A stretch of 64,000 nt of DNA. Source: an uncultured Nitrospiraceae bacterium (lineage in GTDB: Bacteria > Nitrospirota > Nitrospiria > Nitrospirales > Nitrospiraceae). A program made the position numbers and the translations under genes. Below, piece after piece: positions 5,427 through 20,352 of this stretch (its first letter is position 1; each line of letters begins with the position of its first letter). The DNA is taken from the NCBI GenBank assembly GCA_963846575.1, contig CAWJWJ010000002.1, positions 896,001 through 960,000 of the forward strand, in the 5' to 3' direction. Under the pieces are notes generated by a model, which was given only the letters and a program-made list of their open reading frames with translations, searched no databases and had not been told where the DNA came from.

Positions 5427-5870
5427 TCAGGGAGACTTCATTTCCAGCCGCACCCGGTCGATGGACCAGCGGAGGTCCTTCAATGGAAGGTTGTGCCCAT
5501 CCAGCGCCTCGACTTCGATGATGACTTGGGGGGTGCGTTCACGGCCTCCGGTGATCGTCTTCAGAGCCTGCGTCACGTCCAGGCGAATGAGGGGCAGGCG
5601 TCGTGGCTCCGACATGGTTGGTCGCGCCGCCACGATGCCTGCCGAGCCCAGGACCACGGTCTGGTGCCGGTCCGTTACGCTGATCACGCGAAGCTTGAGA
5701 GGTTGATCTCCCGGAACAGTCACTCCCTCCAACACAAGGTGAATCCTGCTCGCGTCCGAGGATGCCGGCGGCAAGGCCAGGGTGAACCGGGGATTTCCTT
5801 CATCGGCATGAACCGGCATGCAAAAGCTCGCGATCAGGAACAGCGTGGTGAACGCCACTTGTCTCGTCAT
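5427..5870 (-). CDS. Sec-exported hypothetical protein resembling a PPO C-terminal beta-sandwich domain
   Basis: Signal peptide ending in VHA; 4-bp overlap with the stop codon of the oxidase gene. Confidence 0.65.
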   Translation of the reverse strand: MTRQVAFTTLFLIASFCMPVHADEGNPRFTLALPPASSDASRIHLVLEGVTVPGDQPLKLRVISVTDRHQTVVLGSAGIVAARPTMSEPRRLPLIRLDVTQALKTITGGRERTPQVIIEVEALDGHNLPLKDLRWSIDRVRLEMKSP

Positions 5871-7303
5871 TTGTCCTCGCGTTCCACCTCCGCGACTGTG
5901 AGATGGACGTCCTTCGCTCGCACGGGAATCACCGTGCGAGTTTGAGTCTTGTCCGTTCGTTCTACCAAAGCAAGCCGCACAGGGCCTTGCATGCCGCTTA
6001 ATGCATCGAGCATTGGCAGGGACAGATTCATGGCCACGTTCCGAGCCTGTTTGGAGGTATGGCGTCCTTCCCGATCGCTCAGGACGACCGGGACCGTCCC
6101 CAGATAGCCCTTGCTGCCTGGACCCTCGTCAGCCTTGGCTGCCTCCGGCGTGGCATACAATCGATAGACCGCACTCTTCTTCAATGGCAAGGAGAGCGCA
6201 GTCAGGTGGAGCCGCGCCCGTCCCCCCTGTTCCAGCATCTTCACGATCTTATCACGCGTAGCGCGGGCCACCGTCACCGTGTTGCTGATGCGCCAATCAG
6301 TGCGGATCACTATCCAGTCCAGGAGGCAGGGCAAAATCTCAAAGAACCGCGAGGGGCCATAACTGTATCGCAACTGGTTTTCGTGGTTCAGCACCTGTGC
6401 CGCCGTAATCGAACGCCAGACTTTATTTTCATCGAAAAAGTTCCAGGTCAGATTGAGGAAGGCGCTGTCGGTGGAGTTCGTGTGGCTCGAGGAGGCCTTG
6501 TTCCAGTCGGACCAGATCTTGTCCACGTTGGCATGGTGGGCGTAAAACACGGGATCCTTGCCTGCTGAGTCGAAGAACCCCATGTCGCCGCCCACATCGA
6601 CATGTACGGAGCCGTGCGGTGCGCCCTCGGGGATGCCGCTGCCTCCGGCCGTTCCGCCGAACTCGGCGAACGTTCCGGCGTTGAGCGCCGCGTCCATCAC
6701 AGTGTCTCCCACATCTTCGTCCGGAATCACGTCAGTCGGGCTCATGGTTCGAGTGCCGTTCCACAGTGGATTGCTGCCATCGTTGGGAGACGTGTACCCG
6801 CCTGGAAGGGTGCGATGGGCCGGACTGTCCCAATCCCAGTAAGGGAGCCGGAAGTTCATATCGCCGATGAGTTTGCCGAGTATCCGTTCATGAAAATACA
6901 GGTAGGCCCGGTGCCATGCAAAAAACTGCCAGGAGAAATGCACCTGCGTACCCTCGCCACAATACCAGCAATGGATGTTCGCCTGGCGTGTGAACCCTCG
7001 CGGATCGGCGGGGTCGCTCGTGTCCAGGGCGCGCATGGCCTGATAGGCCTCCTTTAATTTTTTGAGTTCATCGGCGCCGAGGGTCGAGGCCGGTCGTCGA
7101 GGCTGTATGATGCGGCAATCCTTTCGCCACCGTTTCGCCGTGCCGGGATTCCCGGGCGGCTCACAAACGGCCAGGACCGATTGCGGTAGCGCCAGGCCTG
7201 CGAACAGGCTCACACCGAGTGCACCTGCGCCAAATCCGAGTTGGCGCAGGAATGCTCTGCGCGACGACATACCTGCGTTAGGGTTGTGTGTACCGGTGGA
7301 CAT
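5867..7303 (-). CDS. Tat-exported tyrosinase / polyphenol oxidase (type-3 copper)
   Basis: SRRAFL twin-arginine motif; CuA HCWYC...HFSWQFFAWHR; CuB PHGSVH...DPVFYAHHANVD; GAGGAGG RBS. Confidence 0.9.
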   Translation of the reverse strand: MSTGTHNPNAGMSSRRAFLRQLGFGAGALGVSLFAGLALPQSVLAVCEPPGNPGTAKRWRKDCRIIQPRRPASTLGADELKKLKEAYQAMRALDTSDPADPRGFTRQANIHCWYCGEGTQVHFSWQFFAWHRAYLYFHERILGKLIGDMNFRLPYWDWDSPAHRTLPGGYTSPNDGSNPLWNGTRTMSPTDVIPDEDVGDTVMDAALNAGTFAEFGGTAGGSGIPEGAPHGSVHVDVGGDMGFFDSAGKDPVFYAHHANVDKIWSDWNKASSSHTNSTDSAFLNLTWNFFDENKVWRSITAAQVLNHENQLRYSYGPSRFFEILPCLLDWIVIRTDWRISNTVTVARATRDKIVKMLEQGGRARLHLTALSLPLKKSAVYRLYATPEAAKADEGPGSKGYLGTVPVVLSDREGRHTSKQARNVAMNLSLPMLDALSGMQGPVRLALVERTDKTQTRTVIPVRAKDVHLTVAEVEREDK

Positions 7304-7394
7304 TGACCGACCTCCTCTGTGGTTGGATTGAACGTGAATGGCCGACGTGCAGGAAGATCTTCCTCGCTGGCACGCGTCGGACCAATGGAGATGC

Positions 7395-7410
7395 ATCAAT
7401 AAGCGTGCCT
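7395..7410 (-). promoter_or_regulatory. Possible sigma54-like promoter for the oxidase operon
   Basis: Minus strand AGGCACGCTTATTGAT: good -24 element, but -12 is GA rather than GC. Confidence 0.25.
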
Positions 7411-7708: not shown

Positions 7709-9187
7709 ATGCCAGAGTCTCTTTCGCCCGGAATCTACGTCCCTGAAATCCAGGCCGGAAGCCAGGCGATCACAGGTGTGGCGACTGGCACGGGGGGATT
7801 TCTCGGCATCGCCGAGCGTGGGCCGACAGTGCCGACTCTCGTGTCGAGCGTTGCTGAGTATCGCGCAATGTTTGGAGACTACGTGATGGATGGCGCGCAG
7901 GACCGTTACTTGACCTACGCCGTCGAGGGCTACTTTCAAAACGGGGGGCGGCGCTGTTATGTCCAACGGGTGTGTGGAAGAGGGGCCGCGGCGGCCGGCG
8001 CGACGGTCTCCGGGAAGCTCAGGGTTTCCGCGGTTGGGCCTGGAGCCTGGGGAAATCGCATTGCGGTGGACATCCTACCGGCGGGGTCGCGCCATCTGTT
8101 CGGACTCACGGTGAGGTATTGGGGTCCCCATACCATCCACCCGGGCGAAGCCACTGTCCGCGAAGAGTACGCCCATCTATCGTCGGACGAAGCGTCGCCG
8201 GACTTCTATGTGAAGAGGGTCAATGGCACGTCACGTCTGGTGAGGCTTGAAAGGGCGGGCAGGGGCGGTCGTCCGGCAGCCGCCACGGAACGATGGTTGT
8301 TTCGAGGGAGGGACGGCGGGGCCTGTGCCGACAGTGACTGTCAGGCGGCCCTGGATCTCCTTGGGCAGGTGGATGAGATCGCTCTAGTCTGTTGTCCGGA
8401 TGAGCCGGGTTTCCCATCCGTCACGGGGCAGCTGCTGGAGCACTGTGCACGCCTCAAGGATCGATTCGCCATCCTGCAGGCTCCGCTGTCGGTTCCCGAC
8501 CTGCTGCATCACCGGCCTCCACGTGATTCGCGCTACGGGGCCTATTACCTGCCCTGGGTGCGCGTCAGGCATGCCATGAATGGCCGGGAAGTACTCGTTC
8601 CACCGGGAGGGCACATCGCGGGTATCTATGCCAGGACGGACCAGGAGCGAGGAGTGCACAAGGCTCCCGCGAATGAAGCGGTTCGTGGTCTGCTGGCCGA
8701 TCCGCTGGATCCTGAGCGAGGACTAGCCCTCCGGATCACTCAGGCGCAACAGGAAGCGCTTCATCCGCAGGGAGTCAATCTGCTCCGGTATTTTCCGGGG
8801 AAAGGAGTCCTCCTGTGGGGGGCGAGGACAATGGCATCGGATCCGGAATGGAGGTATGTGAACGTCCGGCGGTTGCTCATCTTCGTCGAAGCCTCCATCA
8901 GAAAGGCCATCGGATGGGTGGTCTGTGAGCCCAATGAGGAGCCGTTGTGGGCGACGCTGCGGAGCAGCGTCGGTAATTTCCTCACGGAGTTGTGGAGAGC
9001 CGGCATGTTTCAGGGACAAACTCCGGATGAAGCGTTTTTTGTGAAGTGTGATCGAACGACGATGACCCCAGCCGATCTCGACCAGGGCAGGCTCGTTCTG
9101 GTGATCGGCATTGCTCCGATCAAACCGGCCGAATTTGTCGTCTTTCGAGTCGGACAGTGGGCCGGAGGATCCGACCTGACCGAATGA
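7709..9187 (+). CDS. Phage tail sheath family protein (contractile injection system type)
   Basis: N-terminal SPGIYV; PPGGHIAGIYARTDQERGVHKAPANE; LWGART; WRYVNVRRL; C-terminal GIAPIKPAEFVVFR. Confidence 0.9.
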   Translation: MPESLSPGIYVPEIQAGSQAITGVATGTGGFLGIAERGPTVPTLVSSVAEYRAMFGDYVMDGAQDRYLTYAVEGYFQNGGRRCYVQRVCGRGAAAAGATVSGKLRVSAVGPGAWGNRIAVDILPAGSRHLFGLTVRYWGPHTIHPGEATVREEYAHLSSDEASPDFYVKRVNGTSRLVRLERAGRGGRPAAATERWLFRGRDGGACADSDCQAALDLLGQVDEIALVCCPDEPGFPSVTGQLLEHCARLKDRFAILQAPLSVPDLLHHRPPRDSRYGAYYLPWVRVRHAMNGREVLVPPGGHIAGIYARTDQERGVHKAPANEAVRGLLADPLDPERGLALRITQAQQEALHPQGVNLLRYFPGKGVLLWGARTMASDPEWRYVNVRRLLIFVEASIRKAIGWVVCEPNEEPLWATLRSSVGNFLTELWRAGMFQGQTPDEAFFVKCDRTTMTPADLDQGRLVLVIGIAPIKPAEFVVFRVGQWAGGSDLTE

Positions 9188-9779: not shown

Positions 9780-9981
9780 CTGAGTGGGGCGTCTGACCCT
9801 TCTGTTCCGGTGCGACGTCTGCCAGGCCGTTCGTCCATGGCCGGTCACGCGCTCAGGGATTCGTCGGGACAGAGCACCAAGGCACGCAACTCTCACAGAG
9901 GTTAGACAACGCGTCGAGGGTATGAGGCCCGTTGGAAACCGGGACCTCTCGATGCACGGCTGATTGTTCGAAGGAGGCATC

Positions 9982-11589
9982 ATGTCGAACCCACACGCAC
10001 CGTTTTATCCAATTATCTATGTGCGCGGTTATGCGATGACGCCCGGAGAGATCGACGAGACGACCGCCGATCCCTTCTGCGGCTTCAACCTCGGTTCCAC
10101 CGTGTACCGCGCCGTGCCGGACAAGACCCGCCAGCCGCGCAAATACATCTTCGAATCGCCCGTCGTGCGGCTGGCCTCGGACTTCAAATATTGTGACGTC
10201 TATGAGGATGGGTACGACATCCTCGACCCCGAGTGGAGCACGGATGAGAGGAATGTGCTGACGAGCCGGTCCATCATCATCTACCGCTATTACGACGAAG
10301 CCTCGCGTCTGCTTGGATTGGGAAAGACGCCGGCCATCGAGGTGTTTTCGACCAAGCTGGGCGAGTTGATATTAAAGGTCCGCGATCTCGTCTGCGCCAA
10401 CCCCGAGAACGGCATCACGCCCAAGGATTTCCGTTGTTACCTGGTAGCCCATTCGATGGGTGGTCTGGTCTGCCGCGGCCTGTTGCAGAATCCCAAGAGC
10501 GACAAAAAGAATGCCCGGCAATACGTCGATAAGCTGTTTACCTATGCGACGCCCCATAACGGAATCGAGGTTGCGGGGGTCAATGTGCCGTCGTGGCTGA
10601 CGCTCGCCGACATGAATAATTTTGATCGCAAGAGGATGGCGAAGTACCTGGGTCTGGAAGCAGCGTACGACAAGACCGAGAGGGTCGATTGGATGCCCGA
10701 GGATCGCTTCGATCCGGCGCGGATCTTCTGCATGGTCGGTACCAACCGGATGGATTATGAAGCCGGCCTGGGCCTCTCGCGCACGTTTGCGGGTCAGGGC
10801 AGTGACGGCCTGGTGCGCATCCATAACGCGACCCTGTGCGGTCTGAAGGAAAACGGCGCGCCCGGTTCCCCCTGCGCGAAGGCCTTTGCGTATCGCGCCC
10901 ATTCGGGATTTTTCGGCATTGTGAACAGCGAAGAAGCCTATCAGAACCTGACGCGGTTTCTGTTCGGCAACGTGCGCGTCGACGTGTGGGTCGATGTGGA
11001 AGAGATCAAGCTCCCGGTCACGGTGCAGGAAGCCGTCGATAAGGGCCGGAAGGTGAACGCGCTGTACCAGTTCGAGGTGCTGGCTTCCACGCGCGGCAAA
11101 CTGTGGTTTCTCACGCGCCGGACCTCCGAGGAAGATTCTGTCGCCTGTCTCACGCACGAGGAATGGCTCGCCGCCCCCAAAAAGAACGGCTCGTTGTACG
11201 TCTCGAGCGTGTTTCTCGCCAACCGCGCGAAAGTCATCAAGGCCCGGCGGTCGCTGGCCTACAGCATGTCGCTCGGCGTGCGAGTGCCGGATTATGAAAT
11301 CGATCGCAAACTCTGGATCAATGAGCACTATGAAGGGGGCTATTTGTACCGGAATACGATCTTGATGGAGATGGTGCCGCCGGAGGCGAAGGGCGAGCGA
11401 TGGAAGGTGACCTACGCCTGGCAGAATCAGGGCAAGACCCTGCCGGACAGCGAGATCGATCCCAAGAGTCTCAGGAGCGGCAAGGTGGAGGTGGCTGTGC
11501 CGTTTGAGAGCGGCACCACGCCCGGTATCCGCGGGACGCTGCGGTTCGTCATCTCGGCATGGAATACGGATGCCGTCATGGAGGAATAA
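9982..11589 (+). CDS. Alpha/beta hydrolase (lipase/PGAP1-like) with an uncharacterised C-terminal domain
   Basis: Nucleophile elbow LVAHSMGG, TPHNG, SDGLV, AHS; AGGAGG RBS. Confidence 0.75.
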   Translation: MSNPHAPFYPIIYVRGYAMTPGEIDETTADPFCGFNLGSTVYRAVPDKTRQPRKYIFESPVVRLASDFKYCDVYEDGYDILDPEWSTDERNVLTSRSIIIYRYYDEASRLLGLGKTPAIEVFSTKLGELILKVRDLVCANPENGITPKDFRCYLVAHSMGGLVCRGLLQNPKSDKKNARQYVDKLFTYATPHNGIEVAGVNVPSWLTLADMNNFDRKRMAKYLGLEAAYDKTERVDWMPEDRFDPARIFCMVGTNRMDYEAGLGLSRTFAGQGSDGLVRIHNATLCGLKENGAPGSPCAKAFAYRAHSGFFGIVNSEEAYQNLTRFLFGNVRVDVWVDVEEIKLPVTVQEAVDKGRKVNALYQFEVLASTRGKLWFLTRRTSEEDSVACLTHEEWLAAPKKNGSLYVSSVFLANRAKVIKARRSLAYSMSLGVRVPDYEIDRKLWINEHYEGGYLYRNTILMEMVPPEAKGERWKVTYAWQNQGKTLPDSEIDPKSLRSGKVEVAVPFESGTTPGIRGTLRFVISAWNTDAVMEE

Positions 11590-11756: not shown

Positions 11757-12191
11757 ATGGGAGAGGTCGATACAGCCCCGGAAGTTGCCGCCAAGGTCAT
11801 CGAAGATCTGACGGCGTTGGAGGTGGATCCGGCCAAATGCGAGCGTCTTTTTAAGGCCGCGCTGGTGCAGTCCCAATCGGGCACCACCTATCGCATGCTG
11901 GCCAAGGTGGCACAGACTGGAAAGGTGGATCTCGTCCACTACGGCTGTGCGCTGGATGCGGATGGGAACCCAACCACGAAATGGAAGATCAGGCGCATCC
12001 TCGAACAAAAGCCTGAGCGGTTTGACAAAGAGCTTGAGGCGATCAAGCAGGGAGTCGCGGACGATGGTGAGGTTGTGCAAGGCGCATGGGTGCATGATAT
12101 GACCGGCCTCCCGGACGTCGCCGCACAGGGCAAGAGTCTGGACGAATGGTTTCGGACTACGATCGCGGAGCTTCGCAAGAAACCGAGCTAG
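11757..12191 (+). CDS. Hypothetical protein
   Basis: GGAGGA RBS, protein-like 144-aa ORF. Confidence 0.65.
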   Translation: MGEVDTAPEVAAKVIEDLTALEVDPAKCERLFKAALVQSQSGTTYRMLAKVAQTGKVDLVHYGCALDADGNPTTKWKIRRILEQKPERFDKELEAIKQGVADDGEVVQGAWVHDMTGLPDVAAQGKSLDEWFRTTIAELRKKPS

Positions 12192-12226: not shown

Positions 12227-13519
12227 TCAAAAAATCATCGGCGGTGAGCCCGGCGGCAGGGGCGACGGGCCGGTTGCGGCCCGTGGTGAGGCGGTGATGA
12301 CGACCGTCAGCCGGCGATGGGCCTCCCGTAGCGACCGCTCAACATCCTCCGGGGTATTCCCGCGTGCCAGGAGAAATCCCAGATAGCGCGTCCCTTCCGG
12401 GAGCGGGACCAGTTCGTCACCGGGCGTTGCCGTGATCGTCAGTTCCTCGACCCCCGGCACGGCCTTCGCTTGACTCTGTCCCCGTACCTCGTGGAGCCGG
12501 CCCCCGTAGGGAATAGGAAGCATCATCACGCCCGCCGAGCGCGCTTGCCTGGTGAGAGCAGGAAGCGGCATCCGTAACGCGTGGCGGAGGATCAGCTCTT
12601 CGAGCGACATTCCGGCGGCGAAGTCCAGCGTCCTGGAGCAGCGTCCGCCGATGGCTCGCGCCGCCATCTCAATGACCCACACCCCCTCCTGATTCACCCG
12701 GAATTCGGCATGTACCGGTCCCTCCCGGAGATCGAGAGCTTCGGCTGTCCGGCCGGCACAGGTGACAATGTCCTGCTGTACGTCGGCCGCGAGACGAGAG
12801 GGAGTCACATAGATCGTCTCCTCGAAGTAGGGGCCGTCGAGCGGGTCGGGCTTGTCGAACAGCGCGAGAGGCTGGAGGACTCCGTCGGTGAGCAGGCCCT
12901 CGAGTGCAAACTCCATCCCGGGTACAAAATCTTCGACAAGCACCCAGCGGGCCTGTTCATCGGCTGCGGTCAGACCCAAGGTAGTGAGGAGCGCGCCTAT
13001 CCGACGGAACGCACGAATATATTCCTCCTCGTCATTCGCGCGAATGACCCCGCAACTGGCGGAGAGGATCAGCGGCTTCACGACGCAGGGATAACGCACC
13101 TGCCGGGCGAACGTCGTCGGATCGCCATCGAGCGGGAATACGGCATGCAGGGGGACGGCAATGCCCCGGGCCGAGAGCAACTCGCGCATCCGGCGCTTAT
13201 TGCCCGCGGCGGTCACGGACGCGATGGAGTTGTGGGGTAACCCGAGCGCCTCTGCCACGACCGCGGCGGTGACGGCGGTGGCATCGTTCACGCCGATCAC
13301 CGCATCGATCGCGTGGCGGCGGGCGAATTCCAGGGCGGTTCGTGCGGCTGCTTGCGGATGCCGGAGATCCAGCGTCAGGACATTGCCTGACAGGTCAGGC
13401 AGCGCCTCGTCAGCCTCCTCCGTCCCGATGGTCACGGCGACATCAGTGCGGCGGGCTGCCTCGAGGAATGCCTCCGCTCGATACGTTCGCGTCGGCAGGA
13501 GAAGCAGAAGTCTCGACAT
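12227..13519 (-). CDS. ATP-grasp domain protein (L-amino-acid-ligase-like)
   Basis: NKRRMRE, YPCVVKP, LVEDFVPG, HAEFR, VIEMAAR, C-terminal RYLGFLLARG. Confidence 0.85.
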   Translation of the reverse strand: MSRLLLLLPTRTYRAEAFLEAARRTDVAVTIGTEEADEALPDLSGNVLTLDLRHPQAAARTALEFARRHAIDAVIGVNDATAVTAAVVAEALGLPHNSIASVTAAGNKRRMRELLSARGIAVPLHAVFPLDGDPTTFARQVRYPCVVKPLILSASCGVIRANDEEEYIRAFRRIGALLTTLGLTAADEQARWVLVEDFVPGMEFALEGLLTDGVLQPLALFDKPDPLDGPYFEETIYVTPSRLAADVQQDIVTCAGRTAEALDLREGPVHAEFRVNQEGVWVIEMAARAIGGRCSRTLDFAAGMSLEELILRHALRMPLPALTRQARSAGVMMLPIPYGGRLHEVRGQSQAKAVPGVEELTITATPGDELVPLPEGTRYLGFLLARGNTPEDVERSLREAHRRLTVVITASPRAATGPSPLPPGSPPMIF

Positions 13520-13634
13520 CGTTCGCGACACCGGTGAATCGTGCAACGTCTCTCGTTGCGGATAAGCCTATCTGACGACTGGCCTTGAGCCGGTTCGAAA
13601 AGATCCTGCTCCGGCTCATGTCAGGAACGGCCTG

Positions 13635-14351
13635 TCACGAAGGAAGCGCGGCGGCTGCGCGGGCTTTGTGAAACGCCTCTAACTGACGATTGGCCTCGGT
13701 GATGACGCCTAATTGTTGCACCACGGCGGCCACTCTCTCGCCGGGTATCGCGTAATAGCCCTCATCATCTCCGAGTCCGGTATAGACGCGGTTGCCGATA
13801 CAACCAAAACTGGTGGCCGTCCGTCCCGACTGCAATGATTCCGGCAGCACGGCGCAGGTCGGCCGGCCCATCGTCGCGCCGCCGCCGGCCACGCCCGCGG
13901 CCTGTGCGGCTTCCGCCAGCAGCATCAGTTGCTTGACGGTCCCGCGAACCAGGACCACGTCGGGCGCGAAGCTGGCCTTGGTGAGTGGCGCATAGATGGC
14001 CACATGAAACGGTTTCTGTCGCCGCGGGATCATCGGAATATCTGCCATCGTGAGATACTGCAGGCCTACCATGGTCTGTACCAGGCCGTTCAACTCAGTC
14101 GCCACCTGCGGCGGTAGCTCCACACCGTGGGTATGGGCGCCGACCGGACAGGTATAGTGATCCGTGGCTTCCGTGTAGAAGACCTGTCCCTCTGCCGCCA
14201 ATTTCCAGTACCCGCAGCCCGCCGGCGCCGGCGTGGCGACATGCGGAATGCCGACCGGAGCGGCATCGCGAAACGCGATGGCGACGGCCGGTACCTGTAA
14301 ACCCAGAAGCTCTTGTATCTGCCTGCCTTGTGTCGTTGATTCAGCGTTCAC
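13635..14351 (-). CDS. DUF169 family protein
   Basis: Cys motifs AGC, HYTCPVG, PTCA, GCIGNR; PDVVLV. Confidence 0.75.
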   Translation of the reverse strand: MNAESTTQGRQIQELLGLQVPAVAIAFRDAAPVGIPHVATPAPAGCGYWKLAAEGQVFYTEATDHYTCPVGAHTHGVELPPQVATELNGLVQTMVGLQYLTMADIPMIPRRQKPFHVAIYAPLTKASFAPDVVLVRGTVKQLMLLAEAAQAAGVAGGGATMGRPTCAVLPESLQSGRTATSFGCIGNRVYTGLGDDEGYYAIPGERVAAVVQQLGVITEANRQLEAFHKARAAAALPS

Positions 14352-14546
14352 CGGTCGTTCCCCTCTCTCCTGTATGTGACTCCATCCGAACGTGTTTGTT
14401 CCCGCTGTGCGCAGAAGTCGCGCATGAAGCTTTGCCTGAATCCACGTCAGACCAACCGGGATCCGTTCTCCTGAGTCAGTCTGTTACTCGACTCGTGCGC
14501 CTGCCGGAAGTGGAAGCGGAGCCGGCCATCTCTGGTCGGCACGCCG

Positions 14547-16066
14547 TCATATTTCCCCATGCCCTTTCGTGACCAGCGGTCTGAATTGCCGGCTCGTCGG
14601 CTCGGCACAACAGAACCATGATTCGGTCAGGCGAGGCGGTTTCTGACGGTCAGTCTGGCGCGCGATGGTCCGGGTCGTCGGGCGTGGGGGACGGCCTGCC
14701 GTCTCCTCCGCCGCCGCCCTGATACGATGAAAGATCAACAGGGCATCATCTTCGGCTTTCGCGCCGGCCTCGACGATGGCGTTCACCGCCTGATGGAGCC
14801 GATCCATCCGCTCATCCGGGTGTGTCCATACATATTGAAATGCAGCCTGATCCAACGGCCCGAGGAACCGCCGAACATCGGAATTCGTGAGCAGCGCCGA
14901 TCCGGGCGGAATCAGCAGGCGAATACTTAATTGGACGGGGTCGGTCGCATCGATCAGGTCATGTGCCTCCAGCATATCCAGCATATGAAGGTAATCATCC
15001 AGACTGGTCCATGGGGTGAACGCCACCAGTGAGGGACGCAACGAAAGGCCGGCTTCACGCAGGATGCCGACTGTCGTGATGATGTCAGCCTCTGTGTGCC
15101 CCTTATGGAGTGTTTCCAGCACAGGGTTACTGAAGGACTCCACTGCGGAAATCACGAAGAGGCATCCGTGCGCGCTCAGCTCAGGGATCAGGGATTGCCG
15201 CTTCAGCAGGTGCTCGACCTTGGCGGTGACATCGAAGGTCAGGGACGGAAACTCCGCATGCAGTGCGCGAACGATACTCATGGAGTGGCCGGGGCCGTTG
15301 AAAAAATCAGGGTCGCCGAAGGTGATGTGCGTGGCGCCCGCTCGCACCTGGCGTCGAATATCTTCCAGGACGACGGCCTCCGGGACGAGGACGAAGCGCC
15401 CGTCATAGACCGGGACGATCGGGCAGTGGAGACAATGGTGGAGGCATCCGCGACTCGCCTCGACATAGCCGACCAACCGTTCCCTGCCGTGGTGTTCGAG
15501 CCGCGCATACCGGTCCAACATCGGCAACCCGCTCCGACTCGGTATCGGCTGTGAGGGACTCGAGGTCGTGGACTTGTAGACACGCTGCAGCGAGGGCTCG
15601 GTGATACGCCCCGGTGAACTGACTCCCTCGAGATGACCGATCGGCTGCCCGCGCTCGAGTGCCTCGATTAACGAGATCAATGGCAGGTCGTATTCGCCGC
15701 CCACCACCGAATCGGCCAGGTTTTGAAGGAGATATTCCGCATTGATGGAGGCGTACAACCCGTAAAAACAGATGTGGCTGGAGGGATTGATCTTGCGGAT
15801 CAGCTCGGCGACCCGCACCCCGAGCCGGAGCGCCGTGTGCATGGGCACCGAGATGCCGACGAACCGAGCTGTTTGAAAGGCTGATTCGTCGATGTTGTCC
15901 ACTGCGATGTCGAGGCCGACCGGGGCCCATCCCCCTGTTCGAGAAAGCCGATCGGTTGGGCGATGCCGAGGGGTTGATGGCCCAACTCGTAGCAAGAGAC
16001 GAGCATGATCGCGCCCGGTTGTCTCAGGTCCCGCCACTCTGCTGGGTTGTCCGCACTGCGTCCCAT
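14547..16066 (-). CDS. CCAEP-tail radical SAM protein (B12-binding-like N-terminus), frameshifted near 15932
   Basis: SRGCLHHCLHC (CxxxCxxC) and C-terminal WFCCAEP. The N-terminus (SCYELGHQP) lies in ORF 15800..16090 and joins by adding one base in a G5 run. Confidence 0.85.
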
Positions 16067-16242
16067 CGCACGCTCCTCCCGCTCGGTCATCGGTCACTCT
16101 AACTCACCCCCGAGAGCAGGCGCAATGTGCCGCAGGACAGCGCTGGTTGAACCGGGTCGCCCGTTCTTTCATAATGAAGACGCCGACAGCGGCAGACGAT
16201 CCATCACTCCGTTCTCCGTTGCGCATCCATTGTGGAGGGCCT

Positions 16243-16929
16243 ATGAAAATTCTTCCGCTCATCACCATTGTCATGGCGGCGGTCGTCAGTCTGAGCGTTT
16301 CCGGGTGCGCGAGCGGCCCACGCGAGAAAAAGATCGAGTTCGTCTACCTCGCGCTCGGCGCCAGTGACGCGACGGGGGTCGGGGCTACGCCATTGACGGA
16401 AGGGTACGTGTTCCTGATCAAACAGGATCTGGACCGGCGGATGGCAGGAGTCTTTCTGATTAACCTGGGGATACCGGGGGCCAGGATCGATCTGATCAAG
16501 GAGCAGGTGCGCGTGGCCGGGCAACTTGGCACCAAGGCGAATCTCGTGACGGTGTGGACCGGGGCGAACGATCTCGTGCGCGGTGACGATCCGAAGACGT
16601 TCCGTCAGGATCTGCGGTTTATTCTTCAGATGCTGCGGGACGACGTGTCGGAGAATATCGTGATCGGCAATCTTCCCGATCTCACCCGGCTTCCCCGATT
16701 CCAGCGGGCCCCCGATCCGCGTGTGACCCTGGCACGGGTCACTGCGTATAACGACGCCATTGCGCAGGAGGCGCGCGATGTCGGGGCGACAGTCGTGGAT
16801 CTCTTCACGCAGCCGGTTCGCGAAGAACTCATTTTCGATGTGGATGGGTTCCACCCCAATGATGCCGGTCATCGCGAAATCGCCCGCCTGTTCCTGCAGT
16901 CGATCCTGACCAAACTGGGGGTGAGGTAA
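16243..16929 (+). CDS. SGNH/GDSL hydrolase lipoprotein
   Basis: Lipobox VSGC; LGAS, GAND, DGFHPN. Confidence 0.85.
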   Translation: MKILPLITIVMAAVVSLSVSGCASGPREKKIEFVYLALGASDATGVGATPLTEGYVFLIKQDLDRRMAGVFLINLGIPGARIDLIKEQVRVAGQLGTKANLVTVWTGANDLVRGDDPKTFRQDLRFILQMLRDDVSENIVIGNLPDLTRLPRFQRAPDPRVTLARVTAYNDAIAQEARDVGATVVDLFTQPVREELIFDVDGFHPNDAGHREIARLFLQSILTKLGVR

Positions 16930-17300: not shown

Positions 17301-19220
17301 TCAAATCTCCAGCACCAGCCCTATCTCGACGACCTGTTCCGCCGGCAGGTTGAAATACGAACTGGCGCGCTGGGTGTTTCGAGAGAGGACCACAAACAGT
17401 TTCTCCCTCCAGATCGCCATCCCCGGTTTTGGCGTCGCCAGGAACGTGATCCGACTGAGAAAGAACGTCGTGTCCTCGACCGGAAGCATGTGGCCGTGCG
17501 CCGCGAGTTGGGTCAGGACACGTGGAATATCCGGCCGCTCCATGAATCCGCATCGCGCCACGACCTGAAACAGATTATCCCCGATCGGGGTGATCTCCAG
17601 GGGGCTGCTCGACGGGACGAACGGTACATGTTCCGTGTGGACCGTGAGCAGGTAGACCTGTTCGTGGATCGATTTATTATGTTTGACGTTTTGCAGCAGG
17701 GCCGGCGGGGTGACATCCGGATATTGCGAAAGAAAAACGGCACGTCCGGCTGTTCGGCACTCCACCTTCGACAAGACCTCCCCGACGAATCGCCGCAGGG
17801 GAGGAAACTGAATGCGCAGGTGGTCGGCCACGATCGCGCGGCCTCGAGCCCAGGTGCTCATCACGGTAAAAATAGCCGCGCCCATGAGCAACGGAAACCA
17901 TCCGCCATGCGGAATCTTTTGCGCATTCGCGAGAAAAAAGGCCAGGTCGATGAAGAGAAATCCGCCCACGGCCAGGGCCGCCACCGGAGGACTCCATCCC
18001 CAATGGGTCTGGACCACGCGGAACATGAGCAGCGTGGTGATCACCATGGAGCCGGAGACCGCGATACCATAGGCGGCCGCGAGGTTGCTCGACGATCCGA
18101 AGGAGAGAATCAAGCCAACGGTGCCGATGAACATCAACCAGTTCAGCACACCAAAATAAATCTGGCCATGTTGCGCTGCGGAGGTGTGGGTGATCCGGAG
18201 CGGCGGGAGATAACCGAGTTGGACGGCTTGTAAGGTGAGCGAGAAGGCGCCGGACAGCATGGCCTGGGAGGCGATGACCGTCGCCAGGGTCGCCAGGATG
18301 ATCAGCGGGTAGAGCATCCAGTCAGGAGCCAGGTAATAGAAGGGGTTTGCCAGGGCCGCCGGGTTTCGCATCAGAAGCGCGCCCTGACCGAAGTATTGGA
18401 GGAGTAGCGCCGGCAGGGCGACCACAAACCAGCCGAGTTGGATCGGGCGACGGCCGAAATGCCCCATGTCGGCATAGAGCGCTTCGGCGCCGGTCAACAC
18501 CAGAAAGACGCTTCCCAGCACCAGGAATCCGATTCCCGCATGGTGAGTGAGGAACTCGATTCCGTACAGGGGATTGGCGGCCAGCAACACCTCGGGAGTG
18601 TGCCACAGACTCACCAACCCCAACAGGGCCATGGTGGTGAACCACACCAGCATGATCGGACCGAAAATACTGCCGATCTGTCCGGAGCCTTTGCGCTGGA
18701 TGGTGAACAACAATGCCACCAGGGCGACGGTGATCGGCAGAATGTACGGAGTAAAGAAATCTGTGGCTAACGTGAGCCCTTCGACTGCGCTGAGCACCGA
18801 AATGGCCGGCGTGATGATACCGTCGCTGTAAAGAAAGGAGACGCCGATCAACCCGAGCGTCGCGACCAGGCCGAGTCCCTTTCGAAGGTTCGCCGGGCGG
18901 GAGCGCTGGCTGAGCGCCATGAGCGCCAGCATGCCGCCTTCGCCGTCGTTATCCGCTCTCAGGACGAACAGAAGGTATTTGACCGTCACGACGAGCACCA
19001 GCGACCAGACGATCAGGGAGAGGATGCCCAGGATATTGCCGGTGGTCACCGCCAACCCGTGTGAATCATGAAAACATTCGCGCAGGGCATACAAAGGGCT
19101 CGTGCCGATGTCGCCATACACCACTCCAAGGGCAGCGACGGCGAGTGAGACGGGTGGGGAGGGGGCACCTTGGGGTTCGAGCAGATGCTTGTCCCGGCGC
19201 AATGAGGTAGCCACGGTCAT
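17301..19220 (-). CDS. kup: Potassium uptake protein Kup
   Basis: GVVYGDIGTSPLYA, ADNDGEGG, GAEALYADMGHFG. Confidence 0.95.
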   Translation of the reverse strand: MTVATSLRRDKHLLEPQGAPSPPVSLAVAALGVVYGDIGTSPLYALRECFHDSHGLAVTTGNILGILSLIVWSLVLVVTVKYLLFVLRADNDGEGGMLALMALSQRSRPANLRKGLGLVATLGLIGVSFLYSDGIITPAISVLSAVEGLTLATDFFTPYILPITVALVALLFTIQRKGSGQIGSIFGPIMLVWFTTMALLGLVSLWHTPEVLLAANPLYGIEFLTHHAGIGFLVLGSVFLVLTGAEALYADMGHFGRRPIQLGWFVVALPALLLQYFGQGALLMRNPAALANPFYYLAPDWMLYPLIILATLATVIASQAMLSGAFSLTLQAVQLGYLPPLRITHTSAAQHGQIYFGVLNWLMFIGTVGLILSFGSSSNLAAAYGIAVSGSMVITTLLMFRVVQTHWGWSPPVAALAVGGFLFIDLAFFLANAQKIPHGGWFPLLMGAAIFTVMSTWARGRAIVADHLRIQFPPLRRFVGEVLSKVECRTAGRAVFLSQYPDVTPPALLQNVKHNKSIHEQVYLLTVHTEHVPFVPSSSPLEITPIGDNLFQVVARCGFMERPDIPRVLTQLAAHGHMLPVEDTTFFLSRITFLATPKPGMAIWREKLFVVLSRNTQRASSYFNLPAEQVVEIGLVLEI

Positions 19221-19266
19221 GGTTGTAAGGCGGCCATCACGGGAGTGATCCGATCGTCCTGCTGCG

Positions 19267-20352
19267 TCATTTAATGAGTAGGTCGCTCGGGTGGTCTTGA
19301 AATTCGTCCTGATAGATACGGAAGGTTTCCAGGAGGACGGCCAAAATAATCGGGCCGAGGAACAGCCCCAGGAGGCCGAAGGAGGCCAGCCCGCCGAGCG
19401 AGGCAAAGAAGAGAAAGAGCATCGGCAGCCGTGCCTTGTTCCCGATGAGAAACGGCTGGAGCAGATTATCCAGCAGGCCCACGAGCCCTGCCCCGACTCC
19501 GATCATAATAAAACCTTTGACGATCGACCCGGTGAAGAACAGGTAGCCCGCAACCGGAATCCAGACGAGGGCGGTACCGCCGAATGGCAGCAGGGAGAAC
19601 ATGGCAGAGATAGCGCCGAGGAAGATGGAGAATCGCACGCCGAGGGCCCAGTAGGTCAATCCGGCCACTGTGCCTTGCGCCAACGCGGTCAGCAGGGTGC
19701 CCTGCATCACCGCACTGATCGTGCCGTTCATCCGTTCGAAGATCTTCGATTTGTGGTCGGGATCCAACGGAATGGCCTTGTACAACCCGTGATACAAACG
19801 ATCGCCGTCGCGAAAGAGAAAAAACAGCGTGAAGATCATGACCAGAAAATCGGTCAGGAACAATAGCGCGTTTTTGGCGAGATCGGCGCCCTGTGACAGG
19901 AGAAACGAGCTGATGACTTTTCCGCCTTCCAACACGGATGATTCGAGTTGGCCCTTGTTGGACAGAATCAGACGGCCGAAGAGTTCCTGGCTGAAGCCGC
20001 CGATCAACGGTAATTGCGAAATAGACACACCCAATTCACGCAGCCGGCCTTCACGAAACCACTGGGTCACGGAGTCATAGGCCTGGACCCCTTGATTGAT
20101 GCCTAAGAAGATCAGGTAGAGCGCGGGTAACACCGCGATCGACATGACCATGGCCGTCATCACGGCGGCAGCGGGTTCACGTCGCTGTTTCAAGATCGCG
20201 AGAATCTTCAGGTAGAGCGGGTAGAAGGTGGCCGTCAGGATCACCGCCCATACGATCGGATAAAAAAACGGGCTGAGGATGACGCCGAGTTGCCAGATGA
20301 GAATGAGGACGATGGCGAAGAAGGTGAAGGAGAAGATCTGCTTGCGATTCAC
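19267..20352 (-). CDS. AI-2E family transporter
   Basis: Multiple TM segments, LFFLFRDG, DNLLQP, GLFLGP. Confidence 0.88.
   Translation of the reverse strand: MNRKQIFSFTFFAIVLILIWQLGVILSPFFYPIVWAVILTATFYPLYLKILAILKQRREPAAAVMTAMVMSIAVLPALYLIFLGINQGVQAYDSVTQWFREGRLRELGVSISQLPLIGGFSQELFGRLILSNKGQLESSVLEGGKVISSFLLSQGADLAKNALLFLTDFLVMIFTLFFLFRDGDRLYHGLYKAIPLDPDHKSKIFERMNGTISAVMQGTLLTALAQGTVAGLTYWALGVRFSIFLGAISAMFSLLPFGGTALVWIPVAGYLFFTGSIVKGFIMIGVGAGLVGLLDNLLQPFLIGNKARLPMLFLFFASLGGLASFGLLGLFLGPIILAVLLETFRIYQDEFQDHPSDLLIK

Follow-up and report, generated by a model that had tools for sequence, protein, structure and literature searches.

A conserved gene pair, encoding a radical S-adenosylmethionine (SAM) protein of the CUAEP/CCAEP-tail family and an ATP-grasp ligase, was found in a 64,000-nt stretch of DNA from an uncultured Nitrospiraceae bacterium, a nitrifying soil bacterium (G000:C2:896001-960000; GCA_963846575.1, contig CAWJWJ010000002.1; the whole stretch is called the window below). 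The radical SAM protein (rSAM) belongs to a named, uncharacterised family that, by sequence comparison, is the sister of ArsL and the nearest family to it. It carries a two-chalcogen tail, and its gene is near-obligately paired with that of the ligase, the closest structure to which is the L-amino-acid ligase BL00235. The module belongs to a conserved two-enzyme pathway and lies outside both ArsL and the arsinothricin clusters by model score and gene neighbourhood. As a whole, these features are tentatively best explained by ArsL-like transfer of an aminocarboxypropyl (ACP) group to an element X, with arsenic favoured, together with a methionine-type ligase.

The sequence-only reading of this DNA had reported three co-oriented genes, and these were confirmed on the minus strand (rSAM 16066-14547, DUF169 14351-13635, ATP-grasp 13519-12227). 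The closest homologues, at 75-77%, include Nitrospira and Nitrospirales genomes. The features of the module, all on the minus strand, are:

15935-16066, minus: 5' part of the radical SAM gene (CUAEP/CCAEP family), with an ATG start at 16066 behind a GGAGGAG ribosome-binding site (NF040546 model positions 1-25)
15927-15935, minus: frameshift by loss of one base in a G-rich run, and two substitutions next to it, when compared with intact orthologues
14547-15932, minus: radical SAM main frame (NF040546), with a B12-binding-like N-domain and a TIM barrel; nearest fold AprD4
15423-15446, minus: CxxxCxxC [4Fe-4S]/SAM motif of the rSAM (CLHHCLHC)
14598-14618, minus: WFCCAEP tail motif, the second Cys being selenocysteine (TGA) in most homologues
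13635-14351, minus: DUF169 protein (PF02596), accessory; conserved C46, H65, C68, C166 and C184
12227-13519, minus: L-amino-acid-ligase-type ATP-grasp, core partner of the rSAM; a dedicated subfamily with motifs DKPDPLxGPxFEET and GGxCS

The radical SAM protein, its relation to ArsL and its reading frame

The main frame of the rSAM alone scored 624.9 bits against NF040546, the CUAEP/CCAEP-tail model, above the curated cut-off of 500. Both the existence of this family and its inclusion of selenoproteins, stated in the sequence-only reading, were borne out. The rSAM loci examined numbered 93: the window, 12 regions from Nitrospirota and 80 drawn from 560 GTDB matches that had been confirmed. Their tails read C-TGA-xEP in 58 cases and CCxEP in 31, with four truncated or different. 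At least seven switches between the selenocysteine and Cys forms were needed on the tree. The local copy is a Cys form, and no SelB above cut-off was found in the source genome. An intact Cys-form orthologue is encoded at G243:C6:6185-7705. Many homologues (L036-L110) carry, 12-35 nt past the TGA, a recurrent short hairpin whose loop contains CAG and which resembles a selenocysteine insertion sequence by appearance. The names CUAEP, CCAEP and NF040546 were found for this family in one paper only in the literature searched, a search that lay outside subscription journals and bioRxiv supplements. The available text of that literature calls the family uncharacterised and takes the CU motif as suggesting contact with heavy metals (10.1101/2022.07.06.499078).

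Against the ArsL model NF040542, the rSAM scored 306.7 bits, below the cut-off of 450, while all other rSAM families gave 38.5 bits or less. Its identity to three ArsL proteins was 34-36%, and in 61 columns of an alignment (86 CUAEP against 118 ArsL sequences) the two families shared a residue conserved to 90% or more. In a quick tree with long outgroup branches, CUAEP and ArsL formed one group (SH-aLRT approximate likelihood-ratio support 99) against four other rSAMs of the source genome. The proposed relationship to ArsL was therefore upheld by both score and tree. Shared features include the B12-binding-like N-domain, the CxxxCxxC core and vicinal Cys residues near the C-terminus. The B12-binding Pfam match itself reached 18.6 bits, under the cut-off of 32.1, and the description of the ArsL assays mentions no added B12 (10.1101/2024.02.01.577332). 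The confident predicted model of an intact rSAM orthologue (predicted local distance difference test score 93.6) had AprD4 as its best fold match, and no ArsL structure was among the matches of this search.

According to the available text of two papers, ArsL cuts SAM to methylthioadenosine and an ACP radical and holds As(III) by the three Cys of its RCCLKC motif, in line with the earlier statement that its Cys-rich tail is implicated in arsenic binding (10.1101/2024.02.01.577332; 10.64898/2026.04.29.721666). In the text available to us, it is also described as the sole canonical rSAM for which ACP-radical formation is known. All 118 ArsL homologues end in KRCCLKC, and the tail Cys of the CUAEP family align with the arsenic-binding Cys of ArsL. 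The rSAM had been said to end in WFCCAEP; the motif is present, but it lies near and not at the C-terminus, because 20 residues follow the proline. A review reports that, of the ArsL tail variants, one called 'MCCA' was the most efficient on methylarsenate (PMC13598754). This name may denote a two-Cys tail, and on chemical grounds two ligands would suit arsenic that already bears one carbon substituent.

In the source genome, the rSAM gene is split over two frames, residues 28-52 of the upstream frame matching NF040546 positions 1-25 and the main frame matching positions 27-466. An extra base at about 15930-15935 was present in all nine relative alignments printed (11 matches among 13 loci) and in one 93%-identical Logan contig. 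That the gene is a fresh pseudogene, leaving the cluster inactive in this genome whatever its function elsewhere, has only slightly less than an even chance. Such decay is suggested by the position of the deletion, about 45 codons past the start, by the patchy distribution of the module (two of 11 genomes of the genus) and by an assembly that appears fairly clean, since only four of the 157 orthologues compared with G243 were flagged and one had a clear internal frameshift. Set against this, the ratio of nonsynonymous to synonymous substitution rates was 0.10-0.19 for all three genes, the rSAM had 20 private amino-acid changes versus 15 in the nearest relative, with no excess decay, and no second lesion was found in it. 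Moreover, the deletion falls inside a G-rich run, and such runs are typical sites of long-read errors. Judged from these substitution patterns, the rSAM is under purifying selection apart from the frameshift, and the break would therefore be a sequencing error in the G-rich run or very recent. The odds that it is an assembly error are about even, and only then would the pathway work in the source genome. None of the sequencing runs screened contained the source strain (best share 0.10), and no RNA run was listed.

Pairing with an amino-acid ligase

The resemblance of the ATP-grasp to L-amino-acid ligases was substantiated by three Pfam domains, all above the gathering score (PF13535, PF18603 and PF18130, making up ATPgrasp_N, ATP-grasp_4 and LAL_C2), and by a full-length profile match to BL00235 of Bacillus licheniformis (3VOT; E 4e-70), compared with E 5e-29 for BacD. 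The available text on BL00235 reports that it makes Met-Gly and Met-Met (PMC6920838). Both enzymes share the GPFFEE loop and a C-terminal P-P-x-x-x-x-Y-x-GF motif, whereas BL00235 has neither the DKPDPL nor the GGxCS motif and no Cys at that place. This Cys, beside the GG loop, occurred in all 49 aligned ligases and in 138 of 150 representative sequences. By sequence, the ligase is of the free-amino-acid type, and its similarity to 3VOT suggests that it would form dipeptides from free amino acids.

Among 301 Nitrospirota genomes, the rSAM and the ligase were found in the same 13 (on different contigs in three of them) and neither was found in the other 288; the 13 rSAM genes comprise 11 over the cut-off and two that are split or partial. 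In the 201 Acidobacteriota genomes sampled (phylum of G301), 31 had the rSAM and 35 had the ligase (E <1e-100), the two coinciding in 30. A further 50 rSAM-bearing genomes, from other phyla, were chosen from the 80 loci, and 45 of these contained the ligase. The 50-genome and the Acidobacteriota tallies each include one unpublished genome (G320 and G373, respectively). No p-values are given for co-occurrence because kin are not independent. On the Nitrospirota counts, the association is far beyond chance; the pair recurs across many phyla, and the core of the module is two genes. Cultured carriers include Thermogemmatispora carboxidivorans and Thermomicrobium roseum. In two alphaproteobacterial rSAM genomes (L058:1452-3146 and L080), the ligase was not found, and a 545-564 aa protein with no NCBIfam family was encoded upstream.

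Within the 93 rSAM loci, the neighbours were the ligase (56 loci), YggX (41), DUF169 (27), a formyltransferase (11) and NfuA-like proteins (6). When 80 metagenome loci anchored on the ligase (taken from 593) were added to give 173, NfuA-like matches were present at 47. The ligase and DUF169 occurred together at 22 of the 93. Of the proposed co-occurrence of three genes, the rSAM-ligase pair therefore stands and DUF169 as a fixed member does not; an obligatory three-gene unit was rejected, and DUF169 and the Fe-S proteins are accessory. YggX was likewise rejected as an obligatory partner: it was present in 18 of 31 rSAM-positive versus 57 of 170 negative Acidobacteriota genomes, only a modest enrichment, and its role may be just cluster maintenance. 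The formyltransferase gene adjoins the rSAM or ligase gene, divergent from yggX, mostly in Chloroflexota (L034-L046, L189, L206, L217 and L219).

The DUF169 protein matched PF02596 with 86.8 bits (gathering 27; E 2e-24), and Atlas agreed. It had been called rich in Cys motifs; four conserved Cys were indeed present, each in 23-24 of 24 homologues, but it is not Cys-rich by count. Fold searches gave no match with E <0.001 (best Z 6.1) and no clear known fold. The literature passages available place a DUF169 gene near Nitrospina hgcAB and are otherwise uninformative on function. DUF169 probably acts as a helper protein that binds a metal or metalloid.

Several fusions were also seen. An in-frame rSAM-DUF169 fusion of 759 aa is encoded at L116:8856-11135 (G213). 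An apparent rSAM-ligase fusion (P0275) was discounted, as its junction lacks the tail motif and the sequence looks like a frameshift join. GNAT and sulfotransferase fusions are supported by one and three sequences, respectively.

Proposed chemistry and alternatives

In the favoured scheme, the rSAM would cleave the C-gamma-S bond of SAM in the manner of ArsL, giving an ACP radical. The ACP group would then be joined to X at the two-chalcogen tail, yielding a methionine-shaped ACP-X amino acid that the ligase would couple into a dipeptide. As such an amino acid is a methionine analogue, the two enzymes would fit in series for X = As, S or Se. The YggX, NfuA and ApbC neighbours probably supply the Fe-S cluster of the rSAM. 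The product is probably kept in the cell, since no exporter or resistance gene recurs, which also makes a secreted antibiotic unlikely. The order of an ACP-X amino acid followed by ligation appears reasonably probable. That X is a metalloid, with arsenic considered first, is a more tentative proposal; arsenic is the best single guess, unproven and held with less than even confidence. The earlier idea of an unusual amino acid incorporated by peptide ligation gained support from the closest structure of the ligase and from variant loci flanked by genes for non-ribosomal peptide synthetases (NRPSs).

The logic of bialaphos biosynthesis is an ACP-heteroatom amino acid, methylation of the heteroatom and masking as a peptide. 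The proposed likeness to this phosphinothricin tripeptide is that an ACP-X amino acid is placed in a peptide by a ligase or NRPS, and variant CUAEP cassettes likewise add a corrinoid methyltransferase pair. The CUAEP module differs in its two-enzyme route from SAM and in having no resistance acetyltransferase or exporter.

Arsenic is also suggested by the gene content of some ArsL clusters, which likewise carry an L-amino-acid-ligase-type ATP-grasp. At all three RCCLKC-type ArsL plasmid loci fetched (Pantoea, Alicyclobacillus and Priestia), an ATP-grasp gene was present, adjoining ArsM (two of three), ArsN1 (two of three so annotated) or ArsR; the combination of rSAM and ligase is therefore also an arsenic design. 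The one ArsL-cluster ligase tested had 3VOT as its best match too, more weakly (E 6e-28). These plasmid clusters point towards arsinothricin peptides, which they may make, although none were found in the literature search. They also hold a small CC-tailed protein and a GTP-binding protein (L124:5893-12947, L125:2019-11538 and L126:2094-12472). In P0209, a ligase of the CUAEP subfamily is joined to an ArsM-like domain that scored 228 bits and has 51% identity with the ArsM of the source genome. NCBIfam lists ArsM selenoprotein families.

Variant cassettes were encountered in Acidobacteriota. A search of 172 genome slots around two selected Acidobacteriota found a fused HgcAB-like corrinoid protein (NF043039) in eight genomes. 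In four of the eight, its gene follows those for a CUAEP rSAM, DUF169 and CpaM (NF043040) in operon-like order, directly in G338, G341 and G631 and with two genes between in G383:

L237 (G338:C425), L238 (G341:C62), L232 (G631:C285) and L231 (G383:C46): rSAM-DUF169-CpaM-HgcAB-like cassettes

Three of the cassettes (G338, G341 and G631) are bordered by NRPS genes; three of the genomes (G338, G341 and G383) yielded no ligase. The HgcAB-like and CpaM genes are absent from the source window, unlike in these genomes. According to the available text of one study, fused HgcAB showed no mercury methylation in the organisms tested (PMC10087281). The G341 cassette also has a second rSAM, an aminotransferase and two TauD dioxygenases, and a small conserved ORF lies 3' of the cassette in three of the four genomes.

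Many observations weigh against arsenic or against ArsL-type chemistry. Between the CUAEP and ArsL families, 24 columns are conserved yet different, including MHT versus LFD and the tail itself, C(C/U)AEP versus CCLKC. The CUAEP tail offers two chalcogens (C-C/U), AEP stands in place of the third arsenic-binding Cys of the ArsL CCxxC, and no further conserved Cys outside the cluster motif was present in the CUAEP alignment. The available text of the ArsL papers gives no sequence determinant of ACP versus 5'-deoxyadenosyl (5'-dA) cleavage. Homologues of ArsR, Acr3, ArsN1, the ArsL-type major facilitator superfamily transporter and aquaporin were found at none of the 173 loci at E 1e-8, and an ArsM-like match above 100 bits at one only, in contrast to arsQML-type ArsL clusters. 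Nor was ArsM enriched in rSAM-positive genomes (15 of 31 versus 98 of 170 negative Acidobacteriota; over the cut-off in four of 13 positive versus 92 of 301 Nitrospirota overall), and ArsS was found in none of five rSAM-positive genomes of other phyla. The arsR-arsM-acr3 genes of the source genome are on a different contig from the module. The neighbours that do recur are the Fe-S proteins YggX and NfuA, and the companions of the CUAEP module, Fe-S helpers and DUF169, differ from those of ArsL clusters. Its ligase belongs to another subfamily, to which the ArsL-linked ligases are only 21-31% identical. The P0209 fusion is one metagenomic sequence on one contig and is without one ArsM Cys. No NRPS lay within 20 kb of the G383 cassette, and G631 holds two ligase copies elsewhere in addition to its cassette. 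As(III) itself, the substrate given as an example in the sequence-only reading, is neither shown nor favoured by this context.

Two related ideas were rejected. Common ancestry of the CUAEP ligase with the ArsL-cluster ligases is unsupported at the identity given above. Dependence on host ArsM or ArsS is not indicated, given the lack of enrichment; a figure of 37 in 50 genomes for ArsM has no matched background. A weaker ArsM-like match was present in all 50 genomes of the family, and Nitrospira could therefore methylate arsenic regardless. In the source genome, an ArsM-like gene followed by one for a Cys-rich rSAM lies near the arsR-arsM-acr3 operon (G000:C1:144920-152318); this pair resembles arsenosugar ArsM/ArsS, the second gene being a putative ArsS.

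The same ACP chemistry with X = sulfur or selenium is the next alternative, unlikely overall yet the strongest competitor to arsenic. Homocysteine- or selenohomocysteine-type units would be built into a low-molecular-weight thiol or selenol dipeptide for Fe-S or redox upkeep, X coming from a tail persulfide or perselenide, or from the sulfur of a sacrificial Fe-S cluster reloaded by NfuA or YggX, as NfuA reloads LipA. The recurrence of Fe-S neighbours across phyla (ApbC at four loci and aconitase at 17, besides YggX and NfuA-like proteins) is consistent with this, as are MetE-family matches at seven of 173 loci, rhodanese at two and TusA/DsrE-like genes, identified by eye, at two NC10-type loci. 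The Cys beside the GG loop of the ligase and the lack of a recurrent exporter or resistance gene also fit, and a Met-type ligase would suit homocysteine or methionine analogues equally. However, Fe-S helpers are expected next to any rSAM in an aerobe, and YggX, besides not being an obligatory partner, is absent from the Nitrospirota module loci. No auxiliary-cluster Cys motif is conserved, the HgcAB-like/CpaM cassettes are left unexplained, and homocysteine is cheaply obtainable without radical chemistry. At the NC10-type loci L063:6867-11776 and L066:9453-13589, transglutaminase-like, TusA/DsrE-like, MetE-like and (in L063) ArsM-like genes lie 3' of the rSAM gene.

A carbon or protein substrate, modified through a canonical 5'-dA radical or a Dph2-like ACP transfer and capped by the ligase, with the CC/CU tail acting as a redox arm or as a metal site together with the conserved His of MHT and Glu of AEP, is improbable. 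In its favour, identity of about 35% does not fix the reaction within the rSAM superfamily, AprD4, which has the nearest solved fold, catalyses diol dehydration, the N-domain and the tail show conserved differences between the families, and the formyltransferase at 11 of the 93 loci suggests further tailoring. Against it, the 173 loci showed neither a precursor peptide nor a target gene that was conserved, the tail Cys align with the arsenic-binding Cys of ArsL, and the ligase type is one that acts on free amino acids.

The ArsL-like reading, taken further, would imply a widespread, mostly selenocysteine-dependent pathway in which metalloid-carbon amino acids, of the arsinothricin type or with another element, are made outside ars operons and masked as peptides by the ligase or, in some genomes, by NRPSs, with the fused HgcAB-like proteins serving as metalloid methyltransferase. 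This extension, to soil Acidobacteriota, Chloroflexota, Methylomirabilota, Myxococcota and Nitrospirota, is speculative and on balance doubtful. If it were true, the fused HgcAB-like proteins would gain their first substrate, and the cassettes make the question of that methylation substrate testable. An ArsL sister in about 15% of the sampled Acidobacteriota genomes, with a Cys-selenocysteine tail and a near-obligate ligase, tests the reach of ACP-radical chemistry. Either outcome would be new: soil arsenic or metalloid metabolism would prove to have an unrecognised branch, or a small thiol or selenol would be added to those known.

Other genes around the module

One further gene may belong to the module in this lineage:

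11757-12191, plus: convergent 144-aa gene, a candidate fourth, lineage-specific component that tracks the module in Nitrospirota-type loci

This gene was present at 17 other module loci and was not found in any of the five complete module-lacking relatives searched, a search made without a positive control. Its product had no match in Pfam, NCBIfam or Atlas. A promoter and terminator scan gave signal at chance level. The module is flanked by an alpha/beta-hydrolase-like gene (9964-11589, plus), a GDSL lipase gene (16147-16929, plus) and a Kup potassium transporter gene (17301-19406, minus), none of which recurred at other module loci beyond close kin. Elsewhere in the window, a tyrosinase/polyphenol-oxidase-like gene with an apparent twin-arginine translocation-type leader was seen at 5867-7399 (minus), and a single, isolated phage-tail-sheath gene at 7709-9187 (plus).

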